The position numbers and the translations under genes are program-made. Positions 6,718-62,369 of a stretch of 64,000 bases of DNA are shown here, in pieces; the stretch's first letter is position 1, and each line of letters starts with the position of its first letter. The stretch lies in contig CAYXKF010000002.1 in the NCBI GenBank assembly GCA_964464735.1, positions 3,833-67,832 of the forward strand, in the 5' to 3' direction. The DNA comes from an uncultured Candidatus Saccharibacteria bacterium (GTDB lineage Bacteria; Patescibacteriota; Minisyncoccia; Phycocordibacterales; UBA1006). The notes under the pieces were generated by a model. It was not told the origin of the DNA and searched no databases. It worked only from the letters and a program-made list of their open reading frames with translations.

Positions 6718-6822
6718 AACCTAAGTTTTGAAAAATGATACCTTATTTATCAGAAAAGTCAATATTCTCAAACCCAAACAAAAACCGGCGAAAGCCGGTT
6801 TTTGTGTTTGAATATAAATAGA

Positions 6823-7293: not shown

Positions 7294-7298
7294 ATAAA

Positions 7299-7709: not shown

Positions 7710-7748
7710 AGGTGATAGATTACTTATTTTATCGTATTTAGCAAGGGC

Positions 7749-10557: not shown

Positions 10558-10992
10558 TTATTTAGCTGCTTTTTTAGTTCGCTTAGCAGGAGCCTTAGGG
10601 GCTGCCTCTTTTTTCGACGCGGTAACGGCTTTTACTGCCTTTGCCTTTGAAACCTTAGTGCCTTCGCGGACATCAGCAAGTACGACATGCACTTGCGCTG
10701 TTCGCTTGTTGATACGCGAAGCAGATCCGCGTGCGCGAGGCATAATGCGCTTCATGACAATTCCTTTGTTTACGGTAATTGACTTAACGACAAGCATATC
10801 AACTGGAACGCCTTGGTTATGCGAAGCATTTGCCGCAGCCGAATGAATCAGCTTGGCAATCGGATCGCTTGCACGCTTAACAGTAAAGCCTAATGCAATC
10901 AATGCATCAGGAACACGCTTACCCTTAACGGTATTTGCAACAACGCGGACTTTGCGTGGTGATTGTCGGTAGTTTTTAAGAAAAGCTTCCAT
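10558..10992 (-). CDS. rplV: 50S ribosomal protein L22 (with Lys/Ala-rich C-terminal tail)
   Basis: L22 core plus a 25-aa basic tail. Confidence 0.85.
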   Translation of the reverse strand: MEAFLKNYRQSPRKVRVVANTVKGKRVPDALIALGFTVKRASDPIAKLIHSAAANASHNQGVPVDMLVVKSITVNKGIVMKRIMPRARGSASRINKRTAQVHVVLADVREGTKVSKAKAVKAVTASKKEAAPKAPAKRTKKAAK

Positions 10993-24681: not shown

Positions 24682-24714
24682 GCCCCCAGTATAGCAAATT
24701 AAGCAAAAAATTCC

Positions 24715-26202
24715 TTAGACAATCATCTTTCTAAACGATACGCACAGCAAACAATAAATTGCGATCATACTAACTAATGAAAGCGAGAAATTTATAGTCG
24801 AAAATGGCAAAGCGCTAATAAAATGGGCAATGCTTATGATGTACCCGATCGCAATCTTAAAAGGTAAGGCAATGACAAAACCGATTGCATACGAGAAAAG
24901 CGCAACCGGCACAAGCAACGCACTAAGTGCCATAACAATAGGAACAAACGGCACGACCAAAAGATTTGCGATAAGCCCATAAATCGCAAACGTGCCAAAC
25001 TGGTACATACTGTAGGGATACACAAAAAGCGATACTGCCGCAGTTATCGCAAGCGTCTCGCGAAGGATAAATTTTTCTGGGACGCGCGAGAAAAGATTTT
25101 CAAAGTAATCGCTTCCCAAAACCATTCCCAAAGTTGCCAAAAAAGATAAATGAAACGACACATCATAAAGCAGTATTGCCGGATTAATTGACGCCATAAT
25201 AATTGCCGAAAAGCACAGCGCCCTAAATCCAAGCGCTGGATTCCCCCGCTCTTTTACCAAGTACGCTAGTGCCGCCATAATGACTGCGCGCAATAGCGGC
25301 GGATCGCTTCCTAGAAAAAATAATATCGCTGCAAACAGCAGCGTGTGTGCTAAAAATTTTACGAAGCGATTACGGATAATTGAAAATAGCGGCAACAAGA
25401 TGATAAGCATGATGGTTACATTTGATCCCGAAAGCACCATAATGTGCGACAACCCTGCGGTGCGAAATGTATTTTCAAGCATGTTAGGTATATGTGCTTT
25501 TTCGCCATATACAATACCTGCAGCAATTGCGGCATTAGCCGGCTGTAGATAACTACGGTACGTATTCCAAAATAATTCGCGCACTTTGTTTCGGACACGA
25601 TACAATCCACGCGCGCTTTCGCTGGCAACAATGCGTGCGGACTGCATCGTGCAGCACACACCTTTTGCTAAAAGATAATCAGCAAATGTCGTATCCGAAT
25701 CACCAAGCTTTGTTTGCTTAGGCGCAAGCAATATTCCAGCAACTGAAACGGTGCTGCCTTGTGTTACTGAAGGAGTTATTGAAACTATTACCCGCGCACG
25801 AAAATGTTTTTGCAGCTTTTCACAATACGTCGAATCGTTTGAACATATAGTTCGAAAGCGCATATCAAATTGATAGCCACCAAACTGTGTTTCTGAAACA
25901 TCGGTCACTACAATTCCTTGTATAACCGACTTTTCGTATCGGCGCATAAATTCTGTCGACATATCCGAGGAACGCATAACACCCAATGAAGCGACCAACC
26001 CGACTGCAAAGGCAAAAAATATCCAGCCGATCCAACTTATTTTTGCTGTCGCACGAAAACGAATACACCAAACAATAAGCGCACTAATTACAGAAAAAAT
26101 TGCAAGCCAAAGCAGCAATTTAAAAGGCACCTGCGGCACATGCCACAAAAGGGCTCCTGCAAGCCAACTGCTTATGCATGCAATAAACCAATACCGTGGC
26201 AT
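24715..26202 (-). CDS. comEC: ComEC/Rec2 DNA-internalisation channel protein, membrane part only (DUF4131 plus competence domain, no MBL domain)
   Basis: 495 aa, 10 or more TM. ComEC-like segments are 'GIVVTDVSETQFGGYQF..RARVI', 'AIAAGIVYGEKAHIP.....FRTAGLSHIMVLSGSNVTIM' and 'LAYLVKERGNPALGFRAL'. The protein ends without a beta-lactamase-fold domain. Confidence 0.7.
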   Translation of the reverse strand: MPRYWFIACISSWLAGALLWHVPQVPFKLLLWLAIFSVISALIVWCIRFRATAKISWIGWIFFAFAVGLVASLGVMRSSDMSTEFMRRYEKSVIQGIVVTDVSETQFGGYQFDMRFRTICSNDSTYCEKLQKHFRARVIVSITPSVTQGSTVSVAGILLAPKQTKLGDSDTTFADYLLAKGVCCTMQSARIVASESARGLYRVRNKVRELFWNTYRSYLQPANAAIAAGIVYGEKAHIPNMLENTFRTAGLSHIMVLSGSNVTIMLIILLPLFSIIRNRFVKFLAHTLLFAAILFFLGSDPPLLRAVIMAALAYLVKERGNPALGFRALCFSAIIMASINPAILLYDVSFHLSFLATLGMVLGSDYFENLFSRVPEKFILRETLAITAAVSLFVYPYSMYQFGTFAIYGLIANLLVVPFVPIVMALSALLVPVALFSYAIGFVIALPFKIAIGYIISIAHFISALPFSTINFSLSLVSMIAIYCLLCVSFRKMIV

Positions 26203-26359
26203 AATTTACAAGGAACCTTCGGCTCCAAAATATTTTCCGAAGTCCGAAGCTTGTCTAAGCGAAGCGAGTTCTGCAGGACTGAGGAAAATGTTTTGGGGCC
26301 GAAGCTATCCGAGCGAAAGCGAGTTCTGAAGGATCGTGAAAAATATAAAGGATGCGAAG
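26203..26359. repeat. intergenic region with imperfect ~35-nt direct repeats and ccgaag motifs, upstream of the comEC-led operon
   Basis: 'aagcgaagcgagttctgcaggactgaggaaaatgtt' and 'gagcgaaagcgagttctgaaggatcgtgaaaaatata', plus 'ccgaagtccgaagc' and 'gccgaagctatccgag'. Confidence 0.5.
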
Positions 26360-27085
26360 CTATTGTTTTTCTTGAAATTCTTCCATAATACTTTTTTCTT
26401 CTTCTGCCGAAAATACTTTTTTATATTTTGCCGCTTTGCCGTGCACACGCGCTTTTGTTTCGTCCCAGGTTTTATGTGTCATGATTTTTCCATCAACCAA
26501 ACTGACATAGCTGTAAGCGACTTTCTTTTCCGTAGCACTGGATGGCTTGGCTGGTCTAATATTAGTCGGCACATCCATAAATGTGTCGATTATTTTTGCA
26601 TAATCGGAAAACGAATATTGTTTCGAGAATTTTTTTTTCGAATCGGCCGCAACTGTCGCAAGCTCGTCTACCCGTTCGTTCATCGAGACCCCACTATGGC
26701 CCGATACACGCTTAACATCGCATTTCACACTTTGCATAAGTGCAAAACATTTTTTCCAAAGTTCAAGATTTTGAATAGATTCACCCGTTTGAGTCTTCCA
26801 TCCTTTCTTGATCCAGCCGAAAATCCACATGGTCATCCCCTGCGCAACATACGCCGAATCGGTATATAAAGTCATGTGTGAAATATTTTTTTTATGAGCA
26901 TGGCGCAGGGCTTCGACAACAGCTGTAAGTTCCATTGCATTATTAGTTGTCTTGGTGTCAAAACCAGCGGTTTCATACACGACTTGATTATCGGTATCGA
27001 TCAAGGCAAAACCCCACCCTCCTGGGCCTGGATTTCCCCGCGACGCACCGTCAGTAAATGCAACAACTCCTTCGTGTAATTTCAT
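26360..27085 (-). CDS. rnhA: ribonuclease HI with a C-terminal hybrid-binding-domain-like (Cauli_VI / RNase H1 N-terminal-type) module
   Basis: RNase H fold with DEDD residues ('AFTDGASRGNPGPGGWG', 'MELTAV', 'LYTDSAYV', 'HSGVSMNERVDELA'). The C-terminal 'VAYSYVSLVDGKIMTHKTWDETKARVHGKAAKYKKVFSAEEEKSIMEEF' matches the HBD consensus (Y.V..G...GIY..W.E....V.G...A.YKKF...EEA). Confidence 0.7.
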   Translation of the reverse strand: MKLHEGVVAFTDGASRGNPGPGGWGFALIDTDNQVVYETAGFDTKTTNNAMELTAVVEALRHAHKKNISHMTLYTDSAYVAQGMTMWIFGWIKKGWKTQTGESIQNLELWKKCFALMQSVKCDVKRVSGHSGVSMNERVDELATVAADSKKKFSKQYSFSDYAKIIDTFMDVPTNIRPAKPSSATEKKVAYSYVSLVDGKIMTHKTWDETKARVHGKAAKYKKVFSAEEEKSIMEEFQEKQ

Positions 27086-27519
27086 ATATGTGATTCCCTC
27101 TGCTTAAGAGTTTCATTAGCCAAAACTCCGCCAATAATCTCTATCGGTGATTTTGTTGCATATTTTGCCAGCTCTTTTGCTTTTATCGGGAGCGATGCGG
27201 TGGGTTCAGTTTCAGCTCCATAATATACTCGAGGGATTTTTGCCTTAACAAGCGCAGATAAGCAGGTTGCGCATGGTTCAGATGTTGTATAAAAAGTAAC
27301 ATCAGAAAGTGAAAGAGAGTTTCGCATTTTGCAAAGTCCTCGGATGCAATTAATTTCACCGTGAGCAGTCGGATCCATATATTCTTGTACGCGATCGTGG
27401 TCGCGCCAAACAATCTCTCCTTTCTCAGAGACTGCAATTGCGCCAAATGGAGCATTCCCTTCTTTAACTGCAATCTCAGCCTCTTTTAATGCTTCTCGCA
27501 TGTAATCTTCGTGGTTCAT
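27082..27519 (-). CDS. CMP/dCMP-type zinc deaminase (TadA / nucleoside deaminase family)
   Basis: 'HGEINCI' (H-x-E) and 'PCATC' zinc-binding motifs; 145 aa; 4-nt overlap with rnhA. Confidence 0.6.
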   Translation of the reverse strand: MNHEDYMREALKEAEIAVKEGNAPFGAIAVSEKGEIVWRDHDRVQEYMDPTAHGEINCIRGLCKMRNSLSLSDVTFYTTSEPCATCLSALVKAKIPRVYYGAETEPTASLPIKAKELAKYATKSPIEIIGGVLANETLKQRESHI

Positions 27520-27531
27520 ACCGATACTATA

Positions 27532-28062
27532 TCACTCTTTAAAAAATTTAGACTTTAAAAACTGACCGAAGTCCCATAACTCTTGTTGCCGCTGAGAAAG
27601 TTTAACAATCAGATCTTCTTTTTCACTTTCTGTCAGTTCTTTGTTCACTAATCGCATATCAATCTCTTTACTCACATTCGATACGATGAATTGATCACCC
27701 TCCATATCCTGAGCCCTCAGTTTGATATATTCTTCAGTGGGTCTATTTTTATAAAACTCAGTCAAAAAAGCTTCGGTGCGGGAATATATCGAAGCAATAT
27801 CTTCTTTCTGATTTTCTGATGAAATAAGTATCCAAGGATATGGAGTATCTCCCGTACCGCGTTGTTGCACTGCATGACCGGCGTTCGAGGCAATAGTAGG
27901 TATGCCGTTTACATTAAAAGCCACGATTACCTCTTTCAGTTCCTCATTATCAATAGGCAAGCCATCTTCCATGGTTCCACCCAAGAGATTCATTTGGTTT
28001 TCCCACAGCTTCTGCTTTTGGGATTTTTCAAACTTATTAAGTTCAGGGTTCTTTGGAAACAT
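27532..28062 (-). CDS. hypothetical cytoplasmic protein
   Basis: 176-aa ORF in an operon with recJ, tadA-like and rnhA; no motif recognised. Confidence 0.35.
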   Translation of the reverse strand: MFPKNPELNKFEKSQKQKLWENQMNLLGGTMEDGLPIDNEELKEVIVAFNVNGIPTIASNAGHAVQQRGTGDTPYPWILISSENQKEDIASIYSRTEAFLTEFYKNRPTEEYIKLRAQDMEGDQFIVSNVSKEIDMRLVNKELTESEKEDLIVKLSQRQQELWDFGQFLKSKFFKE

Positions 28063-28064
28063 GC

Positions 28065-29768
28065 CTATGTAATAATATCATCTATCCGCACAAAATGCCC
28101 CCCGCCATTATAGGTATCCTTTTCGATCGTACCAACAATCACCATCGTCTGCCCGGCTTTTAATGAATCTTTTTCATAGGGCGCATAAAATGATACGGCG
28201 CGAAAGGTCTTTCCCGACTGATCCGATGCGATTATTTCAAGGTGGGTTTTGGTTTTTCCAAACCACTTAATATCTTTTATTAAGGCATTCGCAAAAGCAA
28301 AGATTGGCTTCTCATTCTCCATTCCAAACGGACGAAGTGGATCCAGAAATTCTATAATTGATGGTATCAAATCAAATTCTTCGATTGAATCGCACACCTG
28401 ATGCGTTTCTTCGTGTGCTTTTTTATCTTTCAATGAAAGATTCTGGAATGCTTCGACCAAGTCGCCAATTTTTGACGCACTGGTCGAAAAGCCCCCTGCC
28501 CCATGGTGACCGCCGTATTGGTCAAGGACTCCTTCTGGAATCATCGACAAAATATCAAGAACGCTTTCACCGTCATACGCACGGCATGAGGCGCGAATCG
28601 TATCCCCTTCGGTAGTCCACACACAGGTAGTCTTGTGATACCGATCGACCAGCGCAGACGCGACTAATCCAATAACGCCCGAGTGCCACGCATGATTGCC
28701 GATTAAAATAACATCGCCCAATTCGCGCTTGTCTAAATCTTTTTTTGCCTCTTTGGTAATCTGCGCGGTCAATTGTTTGCGCTCGTCATTTTTCGCATCC
28801 ATACGCGCGGCATATATTTTTGCATCGCGTTCAGTTGTTGCGGTAAGCAAATGGTACGCACCAATGGCGTCGCCCATGCGTGATGCGGCGTTTAACGTTG
28901 GCGCGATCGAAAAACCAATATCATCTTCGGTTACCTCGCCAAGGCGAATGCGCTTTAAGGCAAATAACGCGCGCAAGCCCGGGCGTTTTGTTTTGTTTAA
29001 CACCTTGATACCAAAATGCACCAGTGTGCGATTTTCTTTGACCAAGGGCACCATGTCGGCAATGGTTGCAACCGCAACGACATCAAGCGACCATTTTTCG
29101 AACCCATCGGGTAAATCTTTCACTAATTCGGAATTCATTTTGCGCAATGTGATGATCAGCGCGCGGACAAACTGATATGCAACACCCGCGCCGCAAATCA
29201 TCGGGTCGGCATAGTTCCCCAATTTTGGATGCACCACCGCATGCGCATCAGGTAACGTTTCGCCCATTTCATGGTGATCGGTCACGATGATAACGTGGCC
29301 ATTTTTTCGCAAACACGCAATCCCGTCATGAGACCGTACACCAACATCAACAGTAATTACCAAGGCATCCTTGCTCCAATCAGTAATCGTCTGGCATACC
29401 CGTGTCGAAACTCCGTACCCATCTTGCGCGCGGTCAGGAAAAAAGACCTTGTATTTTTTATACCCAACTGCAGTTAAAAAATCAGTAATCACGGTTGCAG
29501 CCGAAACACCGTCGGCATCATAGTCGGCATAAATGGCGATGCTTCGTTCTTCGCGAAGTGCGTCGATAAAACGCTCAACGCCACTTTGCATTCCTTCCAT
29601 CGAAAACGGATCAGCCAAGGTGTCGTATCCAACAGCTAAAAACGCTTCGATCAGTTCGAGCGTATGCAGGGCACGGCTGGCAAAAACCTTAAGCTGCCAA
29701 GGTAAATACTTTTTGCGCAGTTCGTCTTGTTGTATTGCCGAGTCGTCGACATGGATTATGGCGTTCAT
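28065..29768 (-). CDS. recJ: single-stranded-DNA-specific exonuclease RecJ
   Basis: DHH motifs 'IYADYDADGVSA' and 'VIIVTDHHE', DHHA1-like region, 567 aa. Confidence 0.8.
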   Translation of the reverse strand: MNAIIHVDDSAIQQDELRKKYLPWQLKVFASRALHTLELIEAFLAVGYDTLADPFSMEGMQSGVERFIDALREERSIAIYADYDADGVSAATVITDFLTAVGYKKYKVFFPDRAQDGYGVSTRVCQTITDWSKDALVITVDVGVRSHDGIACLRKNGHVIIVTDHHEMGETLPDAHAVVHPKLGNYADPMICGAGVAYQFVRALIITLRKMNSELVKDLPDGFEKWSLDVVAVATIADMVPLVKENRTLVHFGIKVLNKTKRPGLRALFALKRIRLGEVTEDDIGFSIAPTLNAASRMGDAIGAYHLLTATTERDAKIYAARMDAKNDERKQLTAQITKEAKKDLDKRELGDVILIGNHAWHSGVIGLVASALVDRYHKTTCVWTTEGDTIRASCRAYDGESVLDILSMIPEGVLDQYGGHHGAGGFSTSASKIGDLVEAFQNLSLKDKKAHEETHQVCDSIEEFDLIPSIIEFLDPLRPFGMENEKPIFAFANALIKDIKWFGKTKTHLEIIASDQSGKTFRAVSFYAPYEKDSLKAGQTMVIVGTIEKDTYNGGGHFVRIDDIIT

Positions 29769-33915: not shown

Positions 33916-33983
33916 ATATCATTATTATACCAACTTTCGCGCATACAAAAAAGCCGCCTTATTAAGCAGCGGCTTTTCTACAT

Positions 33984-34412
33984 TTACCCTACTGTAGTTC
34001 TTCCGTCACAAAAGTGACAACTAAATGATGAGCCAGGAAGTATCCCCTCATCTACATGATAGGTACATGACACAGTACCTTTCCCTTTTTTGCAAATAAC
34101 GCATTGGTGTGGACCATCCTTAATATGCAAACTTAAGAAGAATGGTTTTTGGCAAGTATTGCAATACATTTTTTCCTTGCCTGCAGCACGGATTTTGGCT
34201 ATTTCAACATGTAAGTCATAAAATTTATAATCCCTACCGCCACAGTTAGGGCATGCCGCACAATCTGTGCCGCTTACCAGGAGATTATCCCAGATTTCTT
34301 TCCCTGTCTTAGGGTCAATCTTGGGATCATTATCCTCAATAGGATCATCCAGAAAAACAACATACAGTAAAGTAATGCTCAAATTTTTTCTCATACAAGT
34401 GGATTTTTGCAA
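33984..34412 (-). CDS. Cys-rich small secreted protein (multiple CxxC pairs, zinc-ribbon-like)
   Basis: Signal-like N-terminus; CAACPNCGG, CNTC, CVIC and CHFC motifs. Confidence 0.35.
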   Translation of the reverse strand: MQKSTCMRKNLSITLLYVVFLDDPIEDNDPKIDPKTGKEIWDNLLVSGTDCAACPNCGGRDYKFYDLHVEIAKIRAAGKEKMYCNTCQKPFFLSLHIKDGPHQCVICKKGKGTVSCTYHVDEGILPGSSFSCHFCDGRTTVG

Positions 34413-34456
34413 ATACTACACTTAAGTATCCTTTTGTCAATTACCCCCTTTACCGT

Positions 34457-37201
34457 CTAGTAACCTGCCTTCTTGTATTTAGCCATAACTTCAGATTCGA
34501 CTTCATCACGCGGACGACCGTACTTAAGGTATGATAACTGCTTGATGTTCTCGACTTGCTCTTTGTTTGATGGCGGATAGTTTTCGGTAACCATATTAAA
34601 CGGTTTTACCGGCTGGCCGCCTGCCAGCATCGACAAATACGCATTGCGGTTATCCAACTTGGTGATATCTTCCCAACTAAACGTCGGCTTCACGCGCGGT
34701 TCAAGCGCTTTTGCATCTTCGGAACTGATGCGAAAGATCGCCATTGAGCCCACGTTACCCAATACCGCGTCGCGGATGTTGTCTTTAAGCTGCGCCATAA
34801 ACTGGTGCGCCATGTTAATCGACAGACGATATTTGCGGGCTTCAGACAAGATGCTTGAGATTGCTGGTGTTGTCACGTTTTGAAACTCGTCGATATACAA
34901 GAAAAAGTCTTCGAACTTTTTACCGTAACTGTCTACGCGCGAAAGCGCGGCCATTTGGATTTTTCCGACGATCACCATACCAATTAAGTTTGCATTGAGT
35001 TCACCTAGGCGGCCCTTAGAAAGATTTACCAAAAGGATCTTTTTATTGTCCATTACTTCGCGCATATTAAAGGCAGATTTTTCCTGCAGCACAACCGGAC
35101 GCATGATTTCGTTTGAAATAAATGGGTCAAACTTTGATGAAATGTACGGCACAAAGTTCGACAGCGATTGTTCGCCCGAGGTTTCCTCGGCGCTTTTCCA
35201 AAATTGGTGCACGATCGGGTTGGTACAGTGCGACAATTTCATATCGCGAAATTCTTTTTCGGCAATCACGCGTGTGATTTCAAGCAGTGTGCAGCCCGAT
35301 TCAGGATGCGACATAACCGCCATTGCGGCATTTTTAAAGTACTGCTGAAACATCGCGCCTCCCTGCTGCTCCATGTTAAACAACTGATTAAAGATACCCA
35401 TCAGCTCGTCGATGACCAGCGATTTTTGTTCGGGACGGTCGGCATCAAATTCAAGCATGTTTAAGCCAATCGGCCGCGGCGTGTAGGCCGGGTCAAAGTA
35501 AATGACATCATCCATACGCTCGGGCGGAATAAACGACAAGATGGTTTGAATGTCAGTACCGTGTGGGTCGATGTAACACACCCCATGCCCGGCTTTAATA
35601 TCTTGCGCGATCATGTTCATAAAGATACCCGTCTTACCAGTACCAGTTTGACCTATTACATAAAAGTGGCGCATGCGGTCTTCGGGCGCAAAGTGAATTT
35701 TGGTAACTTTGTTTTGGTACACGTTTTCGCCCAAAATAATCCCTTGGTCGGATAGTTCGATCGGCGGCGGCGCAACTGCAGCCTTTGACTGTTTAAGTTC
35801 GGCTTGGTCTTCGACCGTTGCCGGAAAGTGAAACAATGTTGCCAGTTCTTTAAAATTTAATGTAAGCCGTTCGCGGCGGTTGTATAGCCGGTATGAAAAG
35901 CTGTGCAAAAAGTCCTGCAGTCCCGATTTGCTTGGCTCGGTAAAATGCAGCCCCGTTGATGTTGTGTCGGTAAACTGGTTAAAGGCCGACTTCATGTCAT
36001 CCAAAATTTGCCGCGCTCGCGCTTCGGTTTGCGCTGATGCAACAATGCGCACGTGTGATTCGATAATGGTCGATTTTAACTTCTCACTGATGCTGGTAAC
36101 GTAATCTTGGTGCGCTTCGGGTTTTTCTTTTTTACTGTCGTCAAACAAGATCGAACCGACGTCGGACAAAAACTGGGTATGCAATTGGGTTACGTATGCA
36201 ATTGCCTTTTTAAGCTTTTTGCCTTTTTTAACTTCGTCCAAAATCTGACCATATTCTTTAATCAAAGTCTGCCCGACCGGCATTACAACAAACTGTATTG
36301 CGGCACCTTCGCCCTTTTTCTCGATCTTCGAAAACGCGTTCAAAAGCACATGCAATGGGTCATGCTCGATATGGTCATATGTCTTAAGTTGCAGCACGTC
36401 GGATACCGTTGCCTGCGCATACGCCCCGACCGATGCGCCGCCTTCGCAAAAAATATTATAGTCATCAAACACTTCTGTGATTTTTACGTCGTGATACAAC
36501 GCATTCACCTGCTTTTCAAAAAGACTGACCTTATGGTTTGGCACGCATGCATAAAACACAATGTGCGGTGAACTATTAGCCATTGCAATTTCAAGGGTAA
36601 AATAATTACGGTCCCGATTGTTCGCATCGCCCGCCACCGCAAGCATGCCGGCATAAAATTGCTCCATCAATTGGATCAATTCTTTATAGCCTTGCTTTTT
36701 GTCTTCGCTTGGGCGAGGCAGCGTCACTTCGAACAAACGCATATCGATTGCCTTGTATAATTCTTGACTTGGTGAAAGCCCTGGCAGCTTATGCTGCGAG
36801 ACTAGGTATTCTGACAAAAAGCGCTGAAAGTCGTCATCAAGGTGCGGATCTTGCATGTGTGTCACCACTTCAAGCGCACTTTTGACACCATGTTCCATCA
36901 TGATGCCGTACAGTTCGCCAATGCGATCGTCGTGCGTTTCAGGCGACAACCGAAGCGTCAGGCTGTGTTCTTCGACGGGCATGCTTTTATGCAGCGCATC
37001 AAGCACTTCGGCTTTTTTTGCCGACTTGTATGACTTAATAAGTTCAAGCGCCATTTTATTTTCTTCGTCCTGGGTCGGCTCGCGATGCTCGACTTTAGTA
37101 AAGTCTTCATGCTTTTTTACCATTTGTGTTCGCAAAAATTCCAGCTCGTCAGCCGGAGACTTTGGCTTTTCGGGCATCCCCGCTTTTGAAGGGTTAAACA
37201 T
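34457..37201 (-). CDS. large soluble P-loop NTPase of the VirB4/VirD4/HerA (DUF87, FtsK-HerA superfamily) type
   Basis: Walker A 'VIGQTGTGKTG' at about residue 505, Walker B 'FFLYIDEFQN' at about residue 765, then 'NMAHQF'. There are no TM segments and a ~450-aa non-ATPase N-terminal region. Confidence 0.55.
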   Translation of the reverse strand: MFNPSKAGMPEKPKSPADELEFLRTQMVKKHEDFTKVEHREPTQDEENKMALELIKSYKSAKKAEVLDALHKSMPVEEHSLTLRLSPETHDDRIGELYGIMMEHGVKSALEVVTHMQDPHLDDDFQRFLSEYLVSQHKLPGLSPSQELYKAIDMRLFEVTLPRPSEDKKQGYKELIQLMEQFYAGMLAVAGDANNRDRNYFTLEIAMANSSPHIVFYACVPNHKVSLFEKQVNALYHDVKITEVFDDYNIFCEGGASVGAYAQATVSDVLQLKTYDHIEHDPLHVLLNAFSKIEKKGEGAAIQFVVMPVGQTLIKEYGQILDEVKKGKKLKKAIAYVTQLHTQFLSDVGSILFDDSKKEKPEAHQDYVTSISEKLKSTIIESHVRIVASAQTEARARQILDDMKSAFNQFTDTTSTGLHFTEPSKSGLQDFLHSFSYRLYNRRERLTLNFKELATLFHFPATVEDQAELKQSKAAVAPPPIELSDQGIILGENVYQNKVTKIHFAPEDRMRHFYVIGQTGTGKTGIFMNMIAQDIKAGHGVCYIDPHGTDIQTILSFIPPERMDDVIYFDPAYTPRPIGLNMLEFDADRPEQKSLVIDELMGIFNQLFNMEQQGGAMFQQYFKNAAMAVMSHPESGCTLLEITRVIAEKEFRDMKLSHCTNPIVHQFWKSAEETSGEQSLSNFVPYISSKFDPFISNEIMRPVVLQEKSAFNMREVMDNKKILLVNLSKGRLGELNANLIGMVIVGKIQMAALSRVDSYGKKFEDFFLYIDEFQNVTTPAISSILSEARKYRLSINMAHQFMAQLKDNIRDAVLGNVGSMAIFRISSEDAKALEPRVKPTFSWEDITKLDNRNAYLSMLAGGQPVKPFNMVTENYPPSNKEQVENIKQLSYLKYGRPRDEVESEVMAKYKKAGY

Positions 37202-37294
37202 GCTGCCATTATATCACGATAAAATAAAAATCGCTGAAATATTCATAACAAAACCCGCACCGAGGTGCGGGTTTTGAAAGTAGAATGATACTTA

Positions 37295-39214
37295 TTATTG
37301 AGTCATCATCTTTGCCTTTGACTTAGGACCAAAGACACCGTCGCCTACAAGGCCGTTCTTGGTTTGCCATTCGATCAAAGCAGACTTTGTCGCTTGTCCA
37401 AATGATCCGTCAGCTCCACCATGGGCAGTAATATTTGCCGCAGCTGCTGCTGAAACATGGGTTAGCAAGAAGTTTTGCAAAGCTTTAACATCCATTCCCT
37501 TTGCACCAAGCTTTAGAACAACTGCAGTAATTGCGCTAATTGCATTGCTTGTTGCAGGCATAACTACCGGAGTAGTTGGAGTTGTAGGAGTAGGTGTTAC
37601 CGGAGTAGCTGGCTTTGGCTTAGGCTTTGATGAACCACCACCGCTTGAGCTTCCACCACCTGAACCACCGCCGCCTGTGTGCTTAGCAACCGATGCAGTA
37701 ACTGCAACCTGTGCATCTGTTGCCGCAGTTCGGTCGGTAAAGGCTACTTGCTTGGTAGTGAATCCTGCTTTTTCAATGAACAATCGGGCATCAACGTCAG
37801 ATAGCAAGGTTGGGCAGTAATAGACTCCTGATGATCCGTCTTCGGTACATGTTGCACCAACCGAATCAGCCGCCGCACCAGTGTATACGCTAGCACCAGA
37901 CAATGCTGCGCTGTCGTATGCACGGGTAACTGTTGCCTTTACTGCGTAGGTAAGACCCTTTGCAGATGCAGTTGCTCCTGCCGCCGTTGCGGTAGTCTTA
38001 GCTGCGTTTGCACCAAGGTTAATGACTGTCTGTCCCGAAGCCGAAGTAGATACGTCAGAAAAACCAGTGTTGGTTGATGCTGAATTTTGGTATCCATCTT
38101 CATTAAGGACCAATGCTGCGTTTGATGCGGCAACTGCCCAGTATGCGTTTTCAGATGAAGTTACTGTTGCAGCAGTTCCGTTGTAAGTCTTAGTATCAAG
38201 ATCAGAAGCTGTAAAGCTTGTTCCTAATTCGTCCGCTACGGCAACTTTAAGCTGGAACAAAATACCTGACACCGTTATGTCGCCTTGAGCAGTCGTACCG
38301 TCAGTGCGGTCTGTAGTGTCACCTGTCGTGTTAGTAACGTATCCTGCCTTGGTAATCGAAACGTCGTTTGCAACGCCGTCTTGCGCTACTGGAACGGCAC
38401 AGTAGTAAATTCCAGTCGATCCACTTTCAGTACATGAAGTCGGGCCTGAACCTGCTGTAACGGTTGCGCCAGTTAGGGCGCCACTGTCACCTTCGCGAGT
38501 TGCAGTAACTTTTTGACCAAACACCAAACCTTTAGCAGTAACGCTTGAACCTGCAGCAACTGCGGTTGTTCGAGCAGCGTTTGCTCCTAAGGTAATCACA
38601 GTCTGCCCTGAAGCTGAAGTAGATACGTCAGAAAAACCAGTGTTTGTCGTACCCGAGTTCAGGTATCCTCCTTCGTTAAGCACCAACGCTGCGCTTGTAG
38701 CATTAGTTGCCCAGTACGCGTTGTTAGTTGCATTTAACGTAACTGCGCCACCGTTAAAGGTTGCAGTATCCAAACCTGATGCTGTAAATGACGAACCAAG
38801 CTCGTTTGCAACGACCACCTTAAGCTGGAACGGAATGTTGCTAACGGTATAAGTGTTTACGGTTTCATCCGCACCGGTGTTATAAGTGAATGCAGCAGTC
38901 GATGTTGTTGTAACATACCCTGTTGCAGTTACACGGATATCGACGGTTTCGCCGTTACCGCAGTTTGCTCCACCTGGAGGTGTTGCAGTCACCGAACCAC
39001 TAGTTGTTGTTCCAAGCGTGGTGTATGTACCGCCGGCACATTGGATTGCAACAGTTGACCCGTTTGGAACGTTGCCGTTATCGCTTTCGCGATGCGCAAC
39101 GATCGTCATGTCACCGTTTGCCGCAAACGCGCCGTGCGCGCCGACAAACAAAGAAACCAAAGCAGCAAGGACGGCAAAAAATGCCAGCTTGCTTTTATTA
39201 AAAGTAAGAACCAT
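37295..39214 (-). CDS. secreted protein with two ~130-aa tandem repeats, Gly/Ser and Pro/Thr linker and C-terminal peptidoglycan-binding (PG_binding_1-like) domain
   Basis: Signal peptide (..GAHGAFA-ANG). Repeats 'FQLKVVVANELGSSFTASGLDT...' and 'FQLKVAVADELGTSFTASDLDT...'. The C-terminal 'KGMDVKALQNFL......GSFGQATKSALIEWQTKNGLVGDGVFGPKS' is PG_binding_1-like. Confidence 0.6.
   Translation of the reverse strand: MVLTFNKSKLAFFAVLAALVSLFVGAHGAFAANGDMTIVAHRESDNGNVPNGSTVAIQCAGGTYTTLGTTTSGSVTATPPGGANCGNGETVDIRVTATGYVTTTSTAAFTYNTGADETVNTYTVSNIPFQLKVVVANELGSSFTASGLDTATFNGGAVTLNATNNAYWATNATSAALVLNEGGYLNSGTTNTGFSDVSTSASGQTVITLGANAARTTAVAAGSSVTAKGLVFGQKVTATREGDSGALTGATVTAGSGPTSCTESGSTGIYYCAVPVAQDGVANDVSITKAGYVTNTTGDTTDRTDGTTAQGDITVSGILFQLKVAVADELGTSFTASDLDTKTYNGTAATVTSSENAYWAVAASNAALVLNEDGYQNSASTNTGFSDVSTSASGQTVINLGANAAKTTATAAGATASAKGLTYAVKATVTRAYDSAALSGASVYTGAAADSVGATCTEDGSSGVYYCPTLLSDVDARLFIEKAGFTTKQVAFTDRTAATDAQVAVTASVAKHTGGGGSGGGSSSGGGSSKPKPKPATPVTPTPTTPTTPVVMPATSNAISAITAVVLKLGAKGMDVKALQNFLLTHVSAAAAANITAHGGADGSFGQATKSALIEWQTKNGLVGDGVFGPKSKAKMMTQ
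37830..38790. repeat. intragenic tandem DNA repeat (~570-bp period, 2 copies)
   Basis: 'gtagatacgtcagaaaaaccagtgtt' recurs at about 38049 and about 38618, with flanking homology. Confidence 0.6.
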
Positions 39215-39411
39215 ATAATAATAAAAAAAACTAATAAAAAATGTCGCGACTTTTACCATCGCCATTGTATGCTTTTACTTTTACATACACAATTTTTTTC
39301 TGGGGAAAACTAACAAAAAATCTTCGCAGTAATGTGCGAAGATTTTTATTTATTAAAACTTTAAACGCCATTACCAAACGACATGTCGTTTTAATATTTA
39401 CATAGAATAAA

Positions 39412-40400: not shown

Positions 40401-42422
40401 TTAGGCAGCAAGAAGAGTGATAGAAGCAGTCTTGAATTCTGGTTCATCAGGTACAAGGTATGAAGTTGTACCGTTAGCGTCAGTTAACGCGTAACCGATG
40501 TTTTCAAGAGTAACTTGAGCTGATGAGTCAGCAGAAGCGGTTGCAATTACTTCAAGAGTAAATTCTGCAGTGTCGCCTTCGCGGATTTCCCAGCCGTTTG
40601 TTCCTTCATCGTAGTCTCCATCTGTAGCTGACAATGTTCCAACAGTGCTGTTAGAAGTAGAGTTGGTGATGCTGTAGCTTGTAGATGTAGTTGCGTATGT
40701 ACCGTCGTTATCTTCAACAGGTGTCGAGTTGTCAATAAAGACATCGTCACCGAATGCAGTAACTTCGAATACAATAATGAATGTACCCTGGTCGAATTCG
40801 CTCGCATCATCAGCTACGAATGTTCGTTCAGCTGACTTCTCGATACCAACAACAGAGATACCTACAGACGCGATAGTCTGAGTTTTAGCTGAAGCTGATC
40901 CATCAATAGTACCAATATCATCACCTGATTCAGCATCTTCTACATCGCTTGATGTAACGTTTGCTTCAGCAAGGACTGTTGCACCATTGTTGTAAACAGC
41001 TGTGCTGCCCTGTGACTTGAACTTGACCTTAACTTCAAATTCCATTTCTTCTCCGGCCTCAATTACGACTTCGTCGTCTTCAAGATCTTCGAATGTGAAT
41101 GTTGCAGTTTCAGTAGTTGCACAGTCTGAAAGACCAGTTGTACCACCGCATGAACCTACTTCGTAGTCACCATTGTAAGTAGTGCCGTCAACAACAAGTT
41201 CTACCTCGTCGATGATATCAGCACCTGTAGCTGTTCCAGCTGCAGCACCGTCAGTGAAAGTCAAAGTAATGTCCACTGGGAAGTCAGTTACCATGATGTC
41301 ACCACCATCCTCATCAGCTGATGCAGTGAAGACTGCTACGGTGTGAGTTGATGATGAGCTTGCCTTTACTTCTAGAGTTCCAGTTTCAGGGCTGTCATCG
41401 CTTTCGCTAACTTCGAATTCTGAGTCACCGCCAGCTTCTTCAATAGTGAATTCAGCTGTGTCAGATGAACCAGTTTCTTCTAGGAAGCCATCAGCATCTT
41501 CGTATCGGATACCGTCAGCGTCACCAAGTTCATTCTCGAATGAGATTGCCCATGATTCGCCGTCGTCAGCACCGTCAACTGATGATGCGACTTCTGCAAC
41601 AACCGTAACTTCTGCATCTTCATCCTCATCTACTTGCCAGTCAAGGCCAGAGAATCGGACTCGGTATACATCGTTAGTGTCGTTAAGTTCATCCCAGTCT
41701 GACTTTGAGTCAGTATCCATTGAGGCGATTTCGTCGCCGTCAACCATTAGAGAAACTGAGTCAAAGACGTTCCAAGGTCGGTCTTCGTCGTTTCCTCCAG
41801 CTGCTTCAAATACAACGTCAATGCGGTTAACAAGGACATCACCATCTTCTGCAGTGAATTCTAGGACACCAAGTTCAGCTTCTGACTGTCCTTCTTCAAG
41901 GTCAGTATCATCAGCGTCGCTTACGTCGATGTTTTCAATTGAGCCTTCACCTGAAAGACCAGTTGAAGAACCACCATTTGAACCACCTGTTGAAGGAGCA
42001 ATTGCGCAGCTAGCAAATGTAGGAGCAACCGGAGTTACCTGTACATAGCCAGTTGGGCAGTTACCTTGTGAAGGTGTTGAAGGCATTGTTGCCAATGCGC
42101 TAGTAAGTGCAGCAGCAGTAGCTGGGCCGGCTGAACCGTCAACAGCTAGTGCATGTGTTGATTGGAACCATTTAACTGCAGCCGTGGTCATAGGACCAAA
42201 CGAGCCGTCAGTTGAAAGTGCAGGAGTGTAACCTGCTTGATTAAGTGCAGTTTGAAGGGCAGAAACAGCAGCGCTCTTCTGACCAGCCTTAAGCACGTAA
42301 CCAGGGTAAGTGTAAGTAGCAGCGTTAGCAGCGAAGGCAAAGCCCAAAACTGCAGCTGAAGCTACAAGCACTACAACCGCTTTAGTTAAAGTGTTTGTTA
42401 AATTCATAACAATTGTTATCAA
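40401..42422 (-). CDS. secreted protein with N-terminal peptidoglycan-binding domain and long, highly acidic (Asp/Glu/Thr/Ser-rich) region
   Basis: Signal peptide, then 'LKAGQKSAAVSALQTALNQAGY.....DGSFGPMTTAAVKWFQ' (PG_binding_1-like), then ~500 aa of D/E/T/S-rich beta-rich sequence. Confidence 0.55.
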   Translation of the reverse strand: MITIVMNLTNTLTKAVVVLVASAAVLGFAFAANAATYTYPGYVLKAGQKSAAVSALQTALNQAGYTPALSTDGSFGPMTTAAVKWFQSTHALAVDGSAGPATAAALTSALATMPSTPSQGNCPTGYVQVTPVAPTFASCAIAPSTGGSNGGSSTGLSGEGSIENIDVSDADDTDLEEGQSEAELGVLEFTAEDGDVLVNRIDVVFEAAGGNDEDRPWNVFDSVSLMVDGDEIASMDTDSKSDWDELNDTNDVYRVRFSGLDWQVDEDEDAEVTVVAEVASSVDGADDGESWAISFENELGDADGIRYEDADGFLEETGSSDTAEFTIEEAGGDSEFEVSESDDSPETGTLEVKASSSSTHTVAVFTASADEDGGDIMVTDFPVDITLTFTDGAAAGTATGADIIDEVELVVDGTTYNGDYEVGSCGGTTGLSDCATTETATFTFEDLEDDEVVIEAGEEMEFEVKVKFKSQGSTAVYNNGATVLAEANVTSSDVEDAESGDDIGTIDGSASAKTQTIASVGISVVGIEKSAERTFVADDASEFDQGTFIIVFEVTAFGDDVFIDNSTPVEDNDGTYATTSTSYSITNSTSNSTVGTLSATDGDYDEGTNGWEIREGDTAEFTLEVIATASADSSAQVTLENIGYALTDANGTTSYLVPDEPEFKTASITLLAA

Positions 42423-44114: not shown

Positions 44115-46334
44115 ATGGATGACATCAAAAAGAAAAAAATCAAAATCGTGCACCGCGATGACGCCGTCGAAGTGATTGTTCATCGCCGCACGCAAGACAT
44201 TATTGTCGGCATTATTTTATTATTCATAACGCTTGGATTCGCATTAGGCGCCGCCGGACAAGCCGGCGCGTTCGGTTCGTTTTTATATCACCGCGTTGCC
44301 GAAACCTTGCTTGGGTTCGCCGCAATATTACTTCCGCTAGGCTCGCTTGGATTGGGCATCTTTTTTTTAAGAAAAGAAAAACAAATTCCTGCAGGCAAGA
44401 TCGCCATGATGGGAGTCTTTGGATTGGCAACTGTAACCATGTTGGCAATCGCGTTCCCCGCGCATCAATTTAGCGTATCAGCCGGAGGAGGCGGAATCAT
44501 CGGTGCGTTCTTAAGCGCACCGCTGGTGAATTTTTTTGGCTTATACTTGGCGATCATATTGATCATTTTAATTTTGATCGGGTCGTTCGGATTGATGTTC
44601 TTGCGCCACGACATTCCTACCTTATTAGCCAACCTGTTAAGTGCAATCAAAAATATCGGCAAAAAGCACGCACGTATCGAAGCGGTTGAAGAAGACGGGA
44701 ACGAAGAAGTGGCAGAAGAAAAGCCTGAGCCTAAAAAAGCCGCAAAAGTGTCCGCTGCCGAAGAATCAACCGAAAGCGACGAACTGACCATCAACAGCTT
44801 TGATGCCAAAAAGAAAACTGCCGGCAAAAAGCCAGTTAATTTTGGCAGCGCAGCGCTTCCTCCCCTTTCACTTTTGGTGCAAACCCAAGAGAAACCCGAA
44901 TTCGGCGACATTAAGGCAACAGCAAACTTGATTCAGCGCACACTGTCGAATTTTGGTATTAACGTCGACATGGACGAAGTATCAGTTGGCCCAACCGTTA
45001 CGCGCTATGCGCTGAAGCCTGCCGAAGGCGTAAAACTTTCGCGCATCGAAGCGCTTGAGCAAGACCTGGCCTTGGCACTTGCCGCCCATCCGCTACGCAT
45101 CGAAGCGCCGATTCCAGGACGCAGCTTGGTTGGTATTGAAGTTCCCAATAAAGGAAAGGCAACAATTCGCATCGCTTCCCTCTTATCTGATGAAGGCTTT
45201 GCAAACCCTAAATTCCAGCTTCCGGTTGCATTAGGTAAAGGCGTTACCGGTAAGTCGCATTTTGCCAATATAGCCAAGATGCCTCACCTTTTGATTGCGG
45301 GCGCAACCGGTTCGGGTAAATCGGTTACGGTGCACAACATGATTATCTCGTTACTGTATAAGCATACGCCAGAAAGCCTGCGATTTATCTTTGTCGACCC
45401 AAAACGTGTCGAGCTTACCTTGTACGACAAGATTCCCCACCTCCTGACTCCGGTTATCAAAGATCCTAAAAAAGCAATTTTGGCACTACGCTGGGCAGGA
45501 AAAGAGATGGAACGTCGCTATGACATACTTGAACACAATGCAGTGCGCGACATTCATTCATATAACGAAAAGATCGTTAAGCCAGCATACGAAACCGCGC
45601 CAAAAGATATCGATGAATCAACCCTGCCCGAAAAGCTTCCTTATATTGTGGTCATTATCGACGAATTGGCCGACATCATGCAGGCGTATCCGCGCGAACT
45701 TGAAGCTGCGATTGTACGCTTGGCACAAATGTCTCGCGCCGTTGGTATTCACCTTATTCTTAGTACCCAGCGCCCTTCGGTAAACGTTATTACCGGACTT
45801 ATTAAGGCAAACATCCCTGCCCGATTAGCACTGCAAGTATCGTCGCAAATTGACTCGCGCACCATTTTGGACGCAACCGGCGCCGAGTCCCTTTTGGGAG
45901 CCGGCGACATGCTCTACATTGACGGTGAAATGGCCAAGCCGACCCGCATTCAATGTGCATTTATTTCGGAAGATGAAGTAAAAAAGGTAGTGCAGTATCT
46001 GCGCAAAAATACCGAAGAAGTGTACGACGAACTTGATTTGGGTGATGGCCCCGCAACGGCCGATAAAACTATTTTTGAAGTCGGCTTGGGCGGCGATGCC
46101 GACGATGACATGTACGAAGAAGCAAAGCGCGTCGTGATCGAGGCCGGCAAGGCATCCACCAGCTACATTCAGCGAAAATTGCGTGTCGGATACTCGCGTG
46201 CAGCACGCCTCATGGATTTGCTTGAAGAAAAAGGTGTCATCGGCCCCGCCGATGGCGCAAAACCGCGCGAAGTATTAGTTGCCGGCGCGGCAAAGCCATC
46301 AAACGAGCCCGAAACAGAAGAAACCAATGAGTAG
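44115..46334 (+). CDS. ftsK: DNA translocase FtsK
   Basis: 4-5 N-terminal TM, an acidic/basic linker, motor domain with 'AGATGSGKSV' and 'VVIIDELAD', and a gamma domain 'SYIQRKLRVGYSRAARLMDLLEEKGVIGP'. Confidence 0.9.
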   Translation: MDDIKKKKIKIVHRDDAVEVIVHRRTQDIIVGIILLFITLGFALGAAGQAGAFGSFLYHRVAETLLGFAAILLPLGSLGLGIFFLRKEKQIPAGKIAMMGVFGLATVTMLAIAFPAHQFSVSAGGGGIIGAFLSAPLVNFFGLYLAIILIILILIGSFGLMFLRHDIPTLLANLLSAIKNIGKKHARIEAVEEDGNEEVAEEKPEPKKAAKVSAAEESTESDELTINSFDAKKKTAGKKPVNFGSAALPPLSLLVQTQEKPEFGDIKATANLIQRTLSNFGINVDMDEVSVGPTVTRYALKPAEGVKLSRIEALEQDLALALAAHPLRIEAPIPGRSLVGIEVPNKGKATIRIASLLSDEGFANPKFQLPVALGKGVTGKSHFANIAKMPHLLIAGATGSGKSVTVHNMIISLLYKHTPESLRFIFVDPKRVELTLYDKIPHLLTPVIKDPKKAILALRWAGKEMERRYDILEHNAVRDIHSYNEKIVKPAYETAPKDIDESTLPEKLPYIVVIIDELADIMQAYPRELEAAIVRLAQMSRAVGIHLILSTQRPSVNVITGLIKANIPARLALQVSSQIDSRTILDATGAESLLGAGDMLYIDGEMAKPTRIQCAFISEDEVKKVVQYLRKNTEEVYDELDLGDGPATADKTIFEVGLGGDADDDMYEEAKRVVIEAGKASTSYIQRKLRVGYSRAARLMDLLEEKGVIGPADGAKPREVLVAGAAKPSNEPETEETNE

Positions 46335-46803: not shown

Positions 46804-47907
46804 ATGGCAAAAGCAAAAAAAGAACCGAAAGAGAAAGAATCGACCGATAAGAAATCAGGAAAACTCTCAGAACTTTCAAGCACGATTAAGATGATCCAAA
46901 CCAAATTTGGCGAAGGATCAATCATGAACTTGGGCGAAGCGCCTAAAGTGAACGTGGGCATCATCCATACCGGTTCGATCGGATTGGACCATGCGCTGGG
47001 AATCGGCGGCTATCCGCGCGGGCGCATCATCGAAATTTTTGGACCAGAATCGTCAGGTAAAACTACATTGACCTTGCACGCAATCGCCGAAGCGCAAAAA
47101 GCGGGCGGCATCTGCGCGTTTATCGACGCCGAACACGCAATGGATCCCGAATACGCAAAAAAGCTTGGCGTTAAAATTGACGAGCTTTTGATCTCGCAAC
47201 CCGACACCGGTGAACAAGCGCTTGAAATTGTCGAAAGCTTGGTTCGTTCGGGTAAAATTGACCTAGTAGTGGTGGATAGTGTTGCCGCATTGACGCCAAA
47301 GGATGAAATCGAGGGCGAAATGGGCCAGGCACAAATGGGCAAGCAAGCGCGCCTTATGTCACAGGCACTGCGCAAATTGACTGCCATTGTTGCAAAGTCA
47401 AAGACGATGATCATTTTCATCAACCAAATTCGTATGCAAATCGGCGTGATGTTTGGTAACCCTGAAACAACGACCGGCGGTAAGGCGCTAAAGTTCTATA
47501 CCTCGGTACGCATCGACATTCGCAAGACAGCACAGATTAAAAAAGGCGAAGAAGTGGTTGGATCACGCACACGTGTAAAGATCGTCAAGAACAAGGTGGC
47601 TCCCCCATTTCGTCAAACCGACTTTGATATTTTGTACGGCGAAGGCATTTCACTTGAGGGCGAATTGCTGGCATTAGGAGAAAAGTTTAAAGTGATTACC
47701 AAATCAGGCGGCGCGGTGTTTACCTACGTTCCTAAAAATGGCACCGAAGAGGTAAAGCTTGGCCGCGGATATGATGCTGCCCGCACGTTCCTTCGCGATA
47801 ATAAGCAAGTTAAAAACGCGCTCATGAAAGACATTCGCGGCGCAATGGAAAACGAAGAAGTAACTGATGGTGTCAGCGACCCAGACGAAGCAAACGAGCC
47901 AGAATAA
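46804..47907 (+). CDS. recA: recombinase RecA
   Basis: '[25 protein letters not shown]' and full-length RecA similarity with an acidic C-tail. Confidence 0.95.
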
Positions 47908-49953: not shown

Positions 49954-50829
49954 TTAATTAAAAATCTTGGCAAAGTCGACACCAAAAAATCGTTTATTTG
50001 TTTCAAGAATTTTAAGGGCTAATGTATCAGGATCTTCCCCCCGGACCCTTGCGATATGCTCGACAATATATCGGACATACGATGGTTCGTTTCGTTTGCC
50101 GCGATGCGGAGCCGGAGTTAGGTATGGACAGTCAGTTTCGACCATAAACTTATCAGCTGGAACCCATTTTATGACTTCGTCATATTGAGATGCAAATGTA
50201 ACAATCCCCGTAAACGAAATTGTGCAGCCAAGTTCAATAAATTTTTTGGCAGTTTCAAGTGAGCCAGTAAAACAATGCACATTTGCGCGCAAATCTGGAT
50301 ACGTAATTTTATATTCAGCAAGGATTTTTATGACATCCTCGTATGCATTTTGCGTATCCTTTGTTGGTCGCACATGCAGCATCAATGGCAAATTATGCAT
50401 CAATGCAAAATCAAGTTGATCGCGGAATATTTTTTCTTGCACTACGCAGGTTGTATCCTCAACGCGATAATAATCTAATCCGCACTCACCGACCGCAATT
50501 ACTTTTGACGTCAATATTTTTTCGTATTGGGCCGCGTCAAAAACTTCGGCACGCGAAACAAATTCGTCTCCACCCTCGCCGATCTCGGCTTCATCATGAT
50601 GGCATTTTGCCGTATGGATCGGATGCAGTCCAATGCAGCTAAATACATGCGGATATTTTTGTGCAAGCTCGATTGTTTTTCTTGAAGTATCCAACTGCGT
50701 CCCGACATTAATAAGCGCAACGTTTTGTTCGCGAGCGCGCTGCAATACCGCATCATAATCGTCGGCAAAAACCGCAAAGTTCACATGCGCATGAATATCA
50801 ACAACCGGGATTTTAGGATCCATATCCAA
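49954..50829 (-). CDS. TatD-family metal-dependent deoxyribonuclease/hydrolase
   Basis: 'VVDIHAHV' and His/Asp/Glu spacing of the TatD fold. Confidence 0.65.
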   Translation of the reverse strand: MDMDPKIPVVDIHAHVNFAVFADDYDAVLQRAREQNVALINVGTQLDTSRKTIELAQKYPHVFSCIGLHPIHTAKCHHDEAEIGEGGDEFVSRAEVFDAAQYEKILTSKVIAVGECGLDYYRVEDTTCVVQEKIFRDQLDFALMHNLPLMLHVRPTKDTQNAYEDVIKILAEYKITYPDLRANVHCFTGSLETAKKFIELGCTISFTGIVTFASQYDEVIKWVPADKFMVETDCPYLTPAPHRGKRNEPSYVRYIVEHIARVRGEDPDTLALKILETNKRFFGVDFAKIFN

Positions 50830-62314: not shown

Positions 62315-62369
62315 ACGAACCGAGTATAGCATCTTAGGATGGTTTTTCAAAAGGTATTAAAAAAAGTTA

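Follow-up and report, generated by a model that had tools for sequence, protein, structure and literature searches.

The Patescibacteria, to which a large share of bacterial diversity belongs, are unable to make nucleotides and depend on type IV secretion systems (T4SSs) for epibiotic growth. Here, we describe a chromosomal gene in a 64,000-nt stretch of contig CAYXKF010000002.1 (the whole of which is hereafter called the window) that encodes a 914-amino-acid (aa) ATPase related to the type IV coupling proteins (T4CPs), the VirD4-type ATPases of conjugation. VirB4-based T4SSs, nested in the monoderm MPF-FATA class, are present in 2,417 of 3,035 Patescibacteria genomes, typically near dnaA/dnaN, and 5,713 VirD4-type T4CP homologues have been counted in 2,918 of the 3,035, only 148 of them near virB4; relaxases are almost absent (Quinonero-Coronel et al., 2025, PMC12102498). 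Unlinked T4CP homologues are thus already known in these bacteria. In Candidatus Southlakia epibionticum, the T4SS is essential, and neither a coupling protein nor a relaxase was recognised in its cluster (Wang et al., 2023, PMC10633639).

The window ATPase is a typical member of the DUF8128 family of patescibacterial T4CP homologues. Its gene and the parts of its product, all on the minus strand, are the following:

34457..37201, minus strand: complete gene of the DUF8128/T4CP-type ATPase (914 aa, uninterrupted; list of open reading frames and translation)
36752..37201, minus strand: N-terminal all-helical module, residues 1-150 (AlphaFold secondary structure and invariant columns)
35792..36745, minus strand: DUF8128 alpha/beta core, residues ~153-470, with a VirB4-N-terminal-domain-like fold
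34592..35764, minus strand: P-loop ATPase domain, residues ~480-870, of the T4CP/VirB4/HerA clade
35627..35653, minus strand: Walker A, GQTGTGKTG, residues 517-525 (from the sequence; invariant in the alignment)
34877..34900, minus strand: Walker B, LYIDEFQN, residues 768-775, followed by SEARKYRLS...AHQ (the 'RK...Q' motif of T4CPs)
35042..35434, minus strand: all-helical insertion, residues ~590-720, at the position of the T4CP all-alpha domain (from the model only)

The open reading frame (ORF) and both Walker motifs are those read in an earlier note on this DNA, made from the letters alone; Walker A does lie in the middle of the protein, and the spacing to Walker B, given there as ~260 aa, measures 251 aa. 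Walker B is embedded in FFLYIDEF, a canonical hhhhDE context. In an alignment of 30 homologues, with a mean column identity of 75%, the catalytic residues G517, Q518, T519, G520, G522, K523, D771, E772, R789, K790, and Q800 are invariant, as is the SEARKY...AHQ block, and the N-terminal module contains the invariant stretches PExHD (87-91) and NPHxDDDFHR (118-127). An identical protein (P0001) is present in NCBI.

Among 5.8 billion proteins searched, more than 1,400 are homologues, with lengths of about 907-921 aa. The best 120 matches are 55-58% identical to the window protein and 904-937 aa long, apart from one 878-aa fragment, and come from Patescibacteria (Paceibacteria, Nomurabacteria, Minisyncoccia). 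P0001 and nearly all of these 120 carry PF26449 (DUF8128), an assignment that comes from precomputed annotation, as the Pfam profile search of the window did not report PF26449; the PGAP names among the homologues include 'type IV secretory system conjugative DNA transfer family protein'. Across species-representative genomes, at least 590 have a relative, and the closest of these, at locus L003, is 92% identical. A literature search for 'DUF8128' found no paper.

Among curated profiles, the window ATPase gives short partial matches to Pfam TraG-D_C (24.9 bits, cut-off 22) and TrwB_AAD_bind (23.5 bits, cut-off 20.5), and DUF87 reaches 21.0 bits, under its cut-off of 23.2; homologues also match T4SS-DNA_transf. 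The NCBIfam models for TraD, CD1115 VirD4-like proteins, and TrbC reach 20-35 bits, where the cut-offs are 250-800, and CedD (E 2.4e-5) and CedB (E 7e-4) match near Walker A, with 23 bits against a cut-off of 600. The VirB4 families AAA_10, CagE_TrbE_VirB, and TraC_F_IV gave no match at E<=0.01 in the Pfam search, and neither did the FtsK_SpoIIIE profile. A sequence profile search of the PDB found DotL (E 0.003) and TrwB (E 0.03), with Walker A aligned, the DEL...RK...Q segment aligned weakly, and the Walker B region set against LFIDEL...GRKAGLRVVAGLQ of TrwB; the corresponding single-sequence search gave marginal matches only. At the level of sequence, the motor is thus placed nearest to the T4CPs. 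The family guess of the earlier note (VirB4/VirD4/HerA-type) was sound: all profile and fold matches fell among T4CP, VirB4, or HerA-type ATPases, two of the Pfam families that it proposed for checking were matched, and KAP and ABC families, which it had named as refuting matches, appeared in neither kind of search.

The AlphaFold model, built on the 30-sequence alignment, consists of a helical module (residues 1-150), an alpha/beta domain (~153-470), and a P-loop domain with a helical insertion. Only helices are modelled across residues 592-718, between Walker A and Walker B (H592-608 through H713-718). In a Foldseek comparison with the PDB, full-length TrwK/VirB4 came first (E 1e-9, 780-920 aligned columns), followed by DotL, Cag-beta, TrwB, and HerA. 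The nucleotide-binding domain (NBD) is RecA-like, with Walker A, Walker B, and the RK...Q motif, and is structurally closest to T4CPs. By fold match, the domain ahead of it is VirB4-N-terminal-domain-like and is not a HAS barrel, which bears out the earlier remark that the long non-ATPase N-terminal half resembles VirB4-like proteins. To our knowledge, a VirB4-type N domain serves as the channel-docking domain in the only solved example, R388 TrwK. From the model, we infer that the DUF8128 domain is a VirB4-like docking domain.

Relatives outside the Candidate Phyla Radiation (CPR) indicate where the family came from. These homologues share 22-26% identity with the window protein, from about residue 150 to the C-terminus. 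The closest, on Streptomyces sp. BHT-5-2 p1, is 25.8% identical over residues 151-897 and has one transmembrane (TM) helix; the gene order around it is polytopic membrane protein, PrgI (VirB3), VirB4, homologue, Replic_Relax, and a hydrolase with NlpC/P60 and SLT domains. Such a cluster is typical of textbook Gram-positive conjugative T4SSs, and the homologue takes the place of the coupling protein in it. Similarly, a 27-kb plasmid of Bacillus subtilis, which also carries conjugal-transfer genes and a TcpF-type VirB4, encodes an 885-aa homologue directly upstream of a Replic_Relax gene, an arrangement also described for pGIAK1 (PMC3756968). Plasmid pLS20 was considered as a prototype and rejected; its VirD4 is a classical 786-aa T4CP with two TM helices. 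Taken together, these homologies indicate that the DUF8128 family arose from the membrane-anchored coupling proteins found in Gram-positive conjugative elements.

Some relatives are found in phages. PHROG 5156 matches residues 153-909 (E 1e-81); since a scan of IMG/VR viral contigs gave a single weak match (32% identity), this reflects relatives in Bacillus phages and not phages of the CPR. In phage SPO1 (L083, 5572-9109), gp27.4 (906 aa) is encoded directly upstream of the Replic_Relax protein gp27.3, annotated 'replication initiation by nicking', with a partition protein nearby, and in the phage-plasmid 0105phi7-2, gp32 adjoins ParA and a RepB primase. SPO1, a lytic phage, thus holds a conjugation-type pair of coupling protein and relaxase within its replication module.

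Within Patescibacteria, where a profile of the N-terminal half matched 1,932 cluster representatives, the family exists in TM-anchored and soluble forms, as predicted with Kyte-Doolittle means over 19 residues (KD19). Orthologues of ~790-840 aa, for example in Wolfebacteria, have one N-terminal TM helix (KD19 2.6-3.2 at residues 3-19). They lack the helical module and align with the window protein, at 40% identity, from residue 166 on, so that the 150-residue module of the window protein stands where these orthologues have their membrane anchor. The window ATPase itself has no predicted TM helix (maximum KD19 mean 1.44), as the earlier note had stated. In three of four loci with the TM form, the gene is immediately preceded by a small unannotated ORF (131-162 aa):

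L087, 5602-5997: ORF upstream of a TM-form gene
L089, 6479-6967: ORF upstream of a TM-form gene
L090, 6574-6999: ORF upstream of a TM-form gene

The L090 ORF matches the helical-module profile (E 1.6e-5) across the motif KG..NA....NP...D..H..L, which corresponds to residues ~90-133 of the window protein. The same motif, with which both of these ORFs end, can be seen by eye in the L087 ORF (profile E 0.17), and the L089 ORF has no convincing match to the module (E 0.047). This limited evidence suggests that the helical module and the small upstream ORF may be related by fission or fusion. At the Wolfebacteria locus L087 (9268-14379), the TM-form gene is ~1 kb from comFC (Pribosyltran and zinc ribbon) and a pilM-pilO-pilB type IV pilus cluster; such competence-type machinery beside the TM-form gene was seen in one clade only.

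The genomic setting of the ATPase gene in relatives is strongly conserved. The gene stands at the end of the ribosomal spc cluster, in the order ...L15-secY-adk-(pyrH-like kinase)-map-ATPase-(CYTH)-ndk-...-RNase J. On the same strand, map is found upstream in 71 of 75 loci (at less than 400 bp in 45 of them) and ndk downstream in 68 of 73 (at less than 2.5 kb in 64). Median identities to one reference are 64.9% for the ATPase, 64.6% for Map, 62.3% for RNase J, 69.7% for SecY, and 55.4% for Adk, so that in these loci, which were picked by the likeness of their ATPase to the window protein, the ATPase appears to match Map and RNase J in conservation and to come close to SecY. Conserved synteny together with near-absence from viral contigs marks the gene as part of the vertically inherited core, and in Paceibacteria the ATPase seems to behave like an essential housekeeping gene.

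From these motifs, folds, homologies, and synteny, we propose that the window protein belongs to the T4CP lineage and still serves as a substrate receptor or translocase at a chromosomal patescibacterial T4SS, a proposal in which we place as much belief as doubt. It would be a cytoplasmic ATPase of the FtsK/HerA superfamily, in the type IV coupling protein (VirD4/TrwB/DotL) lineage, presumably ring-forming (hexameric), and made up of three parts: the 150-residue helical module, the VirB4-N-terminal-domain-like DUF8128 domain, and a T4CP-type motor with an all-alpha insertion. In its ancestral form, the subfamily would have had a single TM anchor and, within conjugative T4SS clusters of Gram-positive bacteria, filled the coupling slot next to a relaxase of the Replic_Relax type. 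In the class Paceibacteria, the gene is now inherited vertically as part of the core, at an evolutionary rate close to the slow one of map or secY, and has lost its linkage to relaxase and T4SS genes; the source lineage has additionally lost the TM anchor, which would have been replaced by a fused helical partner module. The VirB4-like N domain would then dock the ATPase onto a chromosomal T4SS encoded elsewhere in the genome, where it would move macromolecular cargo by means of ATP; the nature of this cargo, nucleic acid or protein, and the direction of its transport we can only infer.

Several observations weigh against this proposal. Neither the window nor any of ~80 loci of relatives, the sample behind our negative statements on neighbouring genes, shows a T4SS component linked to the ATPase gene, and the 25 commonest clusters of neighbours include neither a T4SS component nor a relaxase; because of this, a partnership with a T4SS is deduced from ancestry only. 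The window form has no TM helix. Scores with curated T4CP models only just pass the Pfam cut-offs and fall far short of those of NCBIfam, and the structural model is of moderate confidence (pLDDT 72, pTM 0.48). When aligned by hhalign with TcpF-type VirB4, the family is collinear with it without significance (probability 5% for the family, 0.9% for the N domain alone). Homology between the DUF8128 and VirB4 N domains is thus not demonstrated by sequence and, because the profile-profile comparison was not significant, their link is one of fold. Finally, the T4CP homologue of Ca. S. epibionticum ML1, which may or may not be a DUF8128 protein, is reportedly non-essential by Tn-seq in spite of the essential T4SS (PMC12102498).

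The chief rival explanation is that the ATPase has been exapted as a cytoplasmic DNA translocase that works on the chromosome of its own cell, be it in replication, segregation, repair, or recombination. The published survey allows for such a change, its authors stating that they cannot exclude an exapted T4CP in Patescibacteria (PMC12102498). The position of this core gene inside the ribosomal spc/secY/adk/map block agrees with it, as do the soluble window form and the two phage cases, that is, gp27.4 beside gp27.3 and a partition protein in SPO1, a lytic phage without a T4SS, and gp32 beside ParA and the RepB primase in 0105phi7-2. On the other hand, other patescibacterial orthologues keep a membrane anchor, which argues for a task at the membrane; a complete FtsK is already encoded in the genome; and no nickase or Replic_Relax partner is conserved beside the gene in Patescibacteria. 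In addition, the N domain resembles, by fold match, the VirB4 N domain, which docks onto the channel in the only example known to be solved, R388 TrwK. On balance, we consider exaptation unlikely, at perhaps half the weight that we give to service at a T4SS.

A further possibility is more specific, namely that this relaxase-less T4CP is the motor or receptor that pulls host RNA or DNA into the cell through the T4SS and so supplies nucleotides. The ancestral position of the gene, between adk, the pyrH-like kinase gene, and map on one side and (CYTH), ndk, and RNase J on the other, would fit an import-and-salvage module. According to a 2026 preprint, a cultivated parasite of the Minisyncoccota takes up host RNA by a mechanism that is called unresolved (10.64898/2026.06.21.733656). 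In this precise form, we regard host nucleic-acid import as improbable.

The earlier note had seen in the locus itself a possible remnant or minimal form of a type-IV-like apparatus, formed by the ATPase, a Cys-rich secreted protein, peptidoglycan (PG)-binding secreted proteins, and ftsK. The ATPase is indeed of T4SS type, wall-binding proteins are adjacent to it, and Gram-positive T4SS loci often include wall hydrolases. However, this neighbourhood is restricted to the window and L003, a small clade that alone has moved the ATPase gene, which now lies between variable surface proteins and GAPDH-rpiB-L10-L7/L12; elsewhere, the gene stands between map and ndk. The window contains no map, and its ndk (5779-6423) is found beside a rearranged ribosomal cluster. 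Over 5779-8288, L5 is directly followed by S12 and S7 and then by ndk, and the secY-adk-map-ATPase-ndk block of ~70 related genomes is broken.

Two features divide the ATPase gene from the PG-binding gene upstream of it:

37249..37276, minus strand: terminator-type hairpin directly 3' of the stop codon of the 656-aa gene (12-bp stem, dG -21.9 kcal/mol, z -6.5)
37208..37216, minus strand: extended -10 box TGATATAAT (read from the sequence), ending 6 nt before the ATG at 37201

The hairpin, which none of 200 shuffles equalled in stability, was folded separately, as the consensus terminator scan did not list it because its T-run lies within the stem. It is predicted to insulate the ATPase gene from the PG-binding gene. 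No Shine-Dalgarno sequence precedes the ATPase ATG, which implies that the gene probably has an independent, leaderless or near-leaderless transcript. The same -10-box layout is found ahead of the GAPDH gene, in the window (33916-33945) as well as at L003 (~10715-10735). The TATAAT boxes end 6-8 nt before the ATG of the ATPase and GAPDH genes, neither of which has a Shine-Dalgarno sequence, and this pattern suggests that the source organism may use leaderless mRNAs.

The other neighbours fit a local apparatus no better. The 142-aa Cys-rich ORF (33984-34412, minus strand) has 11 Cys in a zinc-ribbon-like arrangement with four CxxC pairs and a weak zf-FPG_IleRS match; it contains no signal-peptide-like segment (maximum KD 0.82), so that nothing bears out the earlier description of it as secreted, while those of the PG-binding secreted proteins and of ftsK stand. 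It lies in a ~520-bp insertion within 33916-34456 with its own promoter-like site (TTGACA-16-TAGTAT) and terminator-like hairpin. This insertion is absent from L003, where the GAPDH start codon is 22 bp past the ATPase stop codon, and it has the appearance of a small gene cassette gained recently. The 656-aa and 673-aa ORFs have a PG_binding_1 domain and N-terminal hydrophobic segments; the former has no homologue in L003, and the counterpart of the latter is only 48% identical there. The ftsK gene (44115-46334) is canonical, with 4TM, alpha, motor, and gamma domains. Large secreted proteins with PG_binding_1, at the N- or the C-terminus, are scattered in the window (37295-39265, 40401-42422, and 60365-62350), with no recognisable match to a hydrolase domain; the three diverge rapidly, and one of them combines NHL, cadherin, and beta-propeller repeats. 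Lastly, the window contains no gene for VirB4, VirB6, VirB8, or a relaxase and encodes no VirB6-like polytopic protein. The map/ndk synteny therefore contradicts the idea of a local apparatus, which the terminator and separate promoter, the Cys-rich insertion, and the canonical FtsK do not support either, and we leave it next to no probability.

Equally remote is a HerA/DptH/MADS-type defence ATPase, that is, an anti-phage or DNA-modification-dependent restriction motor, a reading suggested by PADLOC (mad8, DptH) and rejected on genomic context, as no nuclease, Sir2, or methylase partner adjoins the gene in any examined locus and a single slow-evolving core gene in a housekeeping context is the opposite of defence-island behaviour. 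In addition, the N domain is VirB4-like and not a HAS barrel, and DUF87 scores below its cut-off.

Apart from the ATPase, the window encodes a 2,064-aa secreted giant protein with a G8 domain, ComEC, RNase H, a dCMP/cytidine deaminase, and RecJ (18487-29768) and, further on, RecA (46804-47907) and a TatD DNase (49954-50829). These genes for DNA uptake and processing fit a nucleic-acid-scavenging lifestyle.

The window gene is thus a clean example of the ubiquitous unlinked T4CP homologues of Patescibacteria. What is new here is the fold assignment of DUF8128, the link to single-TM coupling proteins of the Replic_Relax type, the map-X-ndk synteny, and the dichotomy of TM-anchored and soluble forms. 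No new kind of system is revealed; rather, a domain of unknown function becomes a testable hypothesis of T4SS docking with nucleic-acid or protein cargo.

Compared with known systems, the window ATPase is unlike FtsK/SpoIIIE in having no FtsK_SpoIIIE match, and the genuine FtsK is a separate gene. It differs from HerA in having no HAS-barrel N domain, no DUF87 match above cut-off, and no conserved NurA or effector partner. The archaeal DNA-import ATPases CedB and CedD and the ComB-type import T4SS offer a precedent for a chromosomal, relaxase-free import ATPase of VirB4/T4CP-like type, and CedD and CedB are matched weakly, but no CedA-like membrane partner adjoins the window gene. With VirB4, TrwK, and TcpF, it shares the fold of the N domain, whereas it has no AAA_10 or CagE_TrbE_VirB match, an hhalign probability with TcpF of 5%, and no adjacent VirB3-, VirB6-, or VirB8-type genes. 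Moreover, plasmids with a homologue of the window protein also carry a separate, genuine VirB4, and the patescibacterial VirB4, unlike the window gene, is located near dnaA/dnaN (PMC12102498).

The classical T4CPs (VirD4, TrwB, TraD, DotL) have an N-terminal TM domain that the window protein lacks; the latter has instead an additional VirB4-NTD-like domain of ~320 residues (NTD, N-terminal domain) and the 150-residue helical module. Its gene belongs to the chromosomal core, with no relaxase or linked T4SS genes, and its scores are far below the NCBIfam equivalog cut-offs. The likeness to T4CPs lies in the NBD motifs and, according to the model, in the all-alpha insertion of the NBD. Also close are the DUF8128-like T4CPs of Gram-positive conjugative elements with Replic_Relax relaxases (Streptomyces p1 and pGIAK1-type Bacillus plasmids) and SPO1 gp27.4. 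These are encoded on mobile elements or phages, always beside a Replic_Relax gene, and have no 150-aa helical module; the Streptomyces homologue has one TM helix, and those of Bacillus and SPO1, like the window protein, have none. From about residue 150 to the C-terminus, all of them are homologous to the window ATPase.

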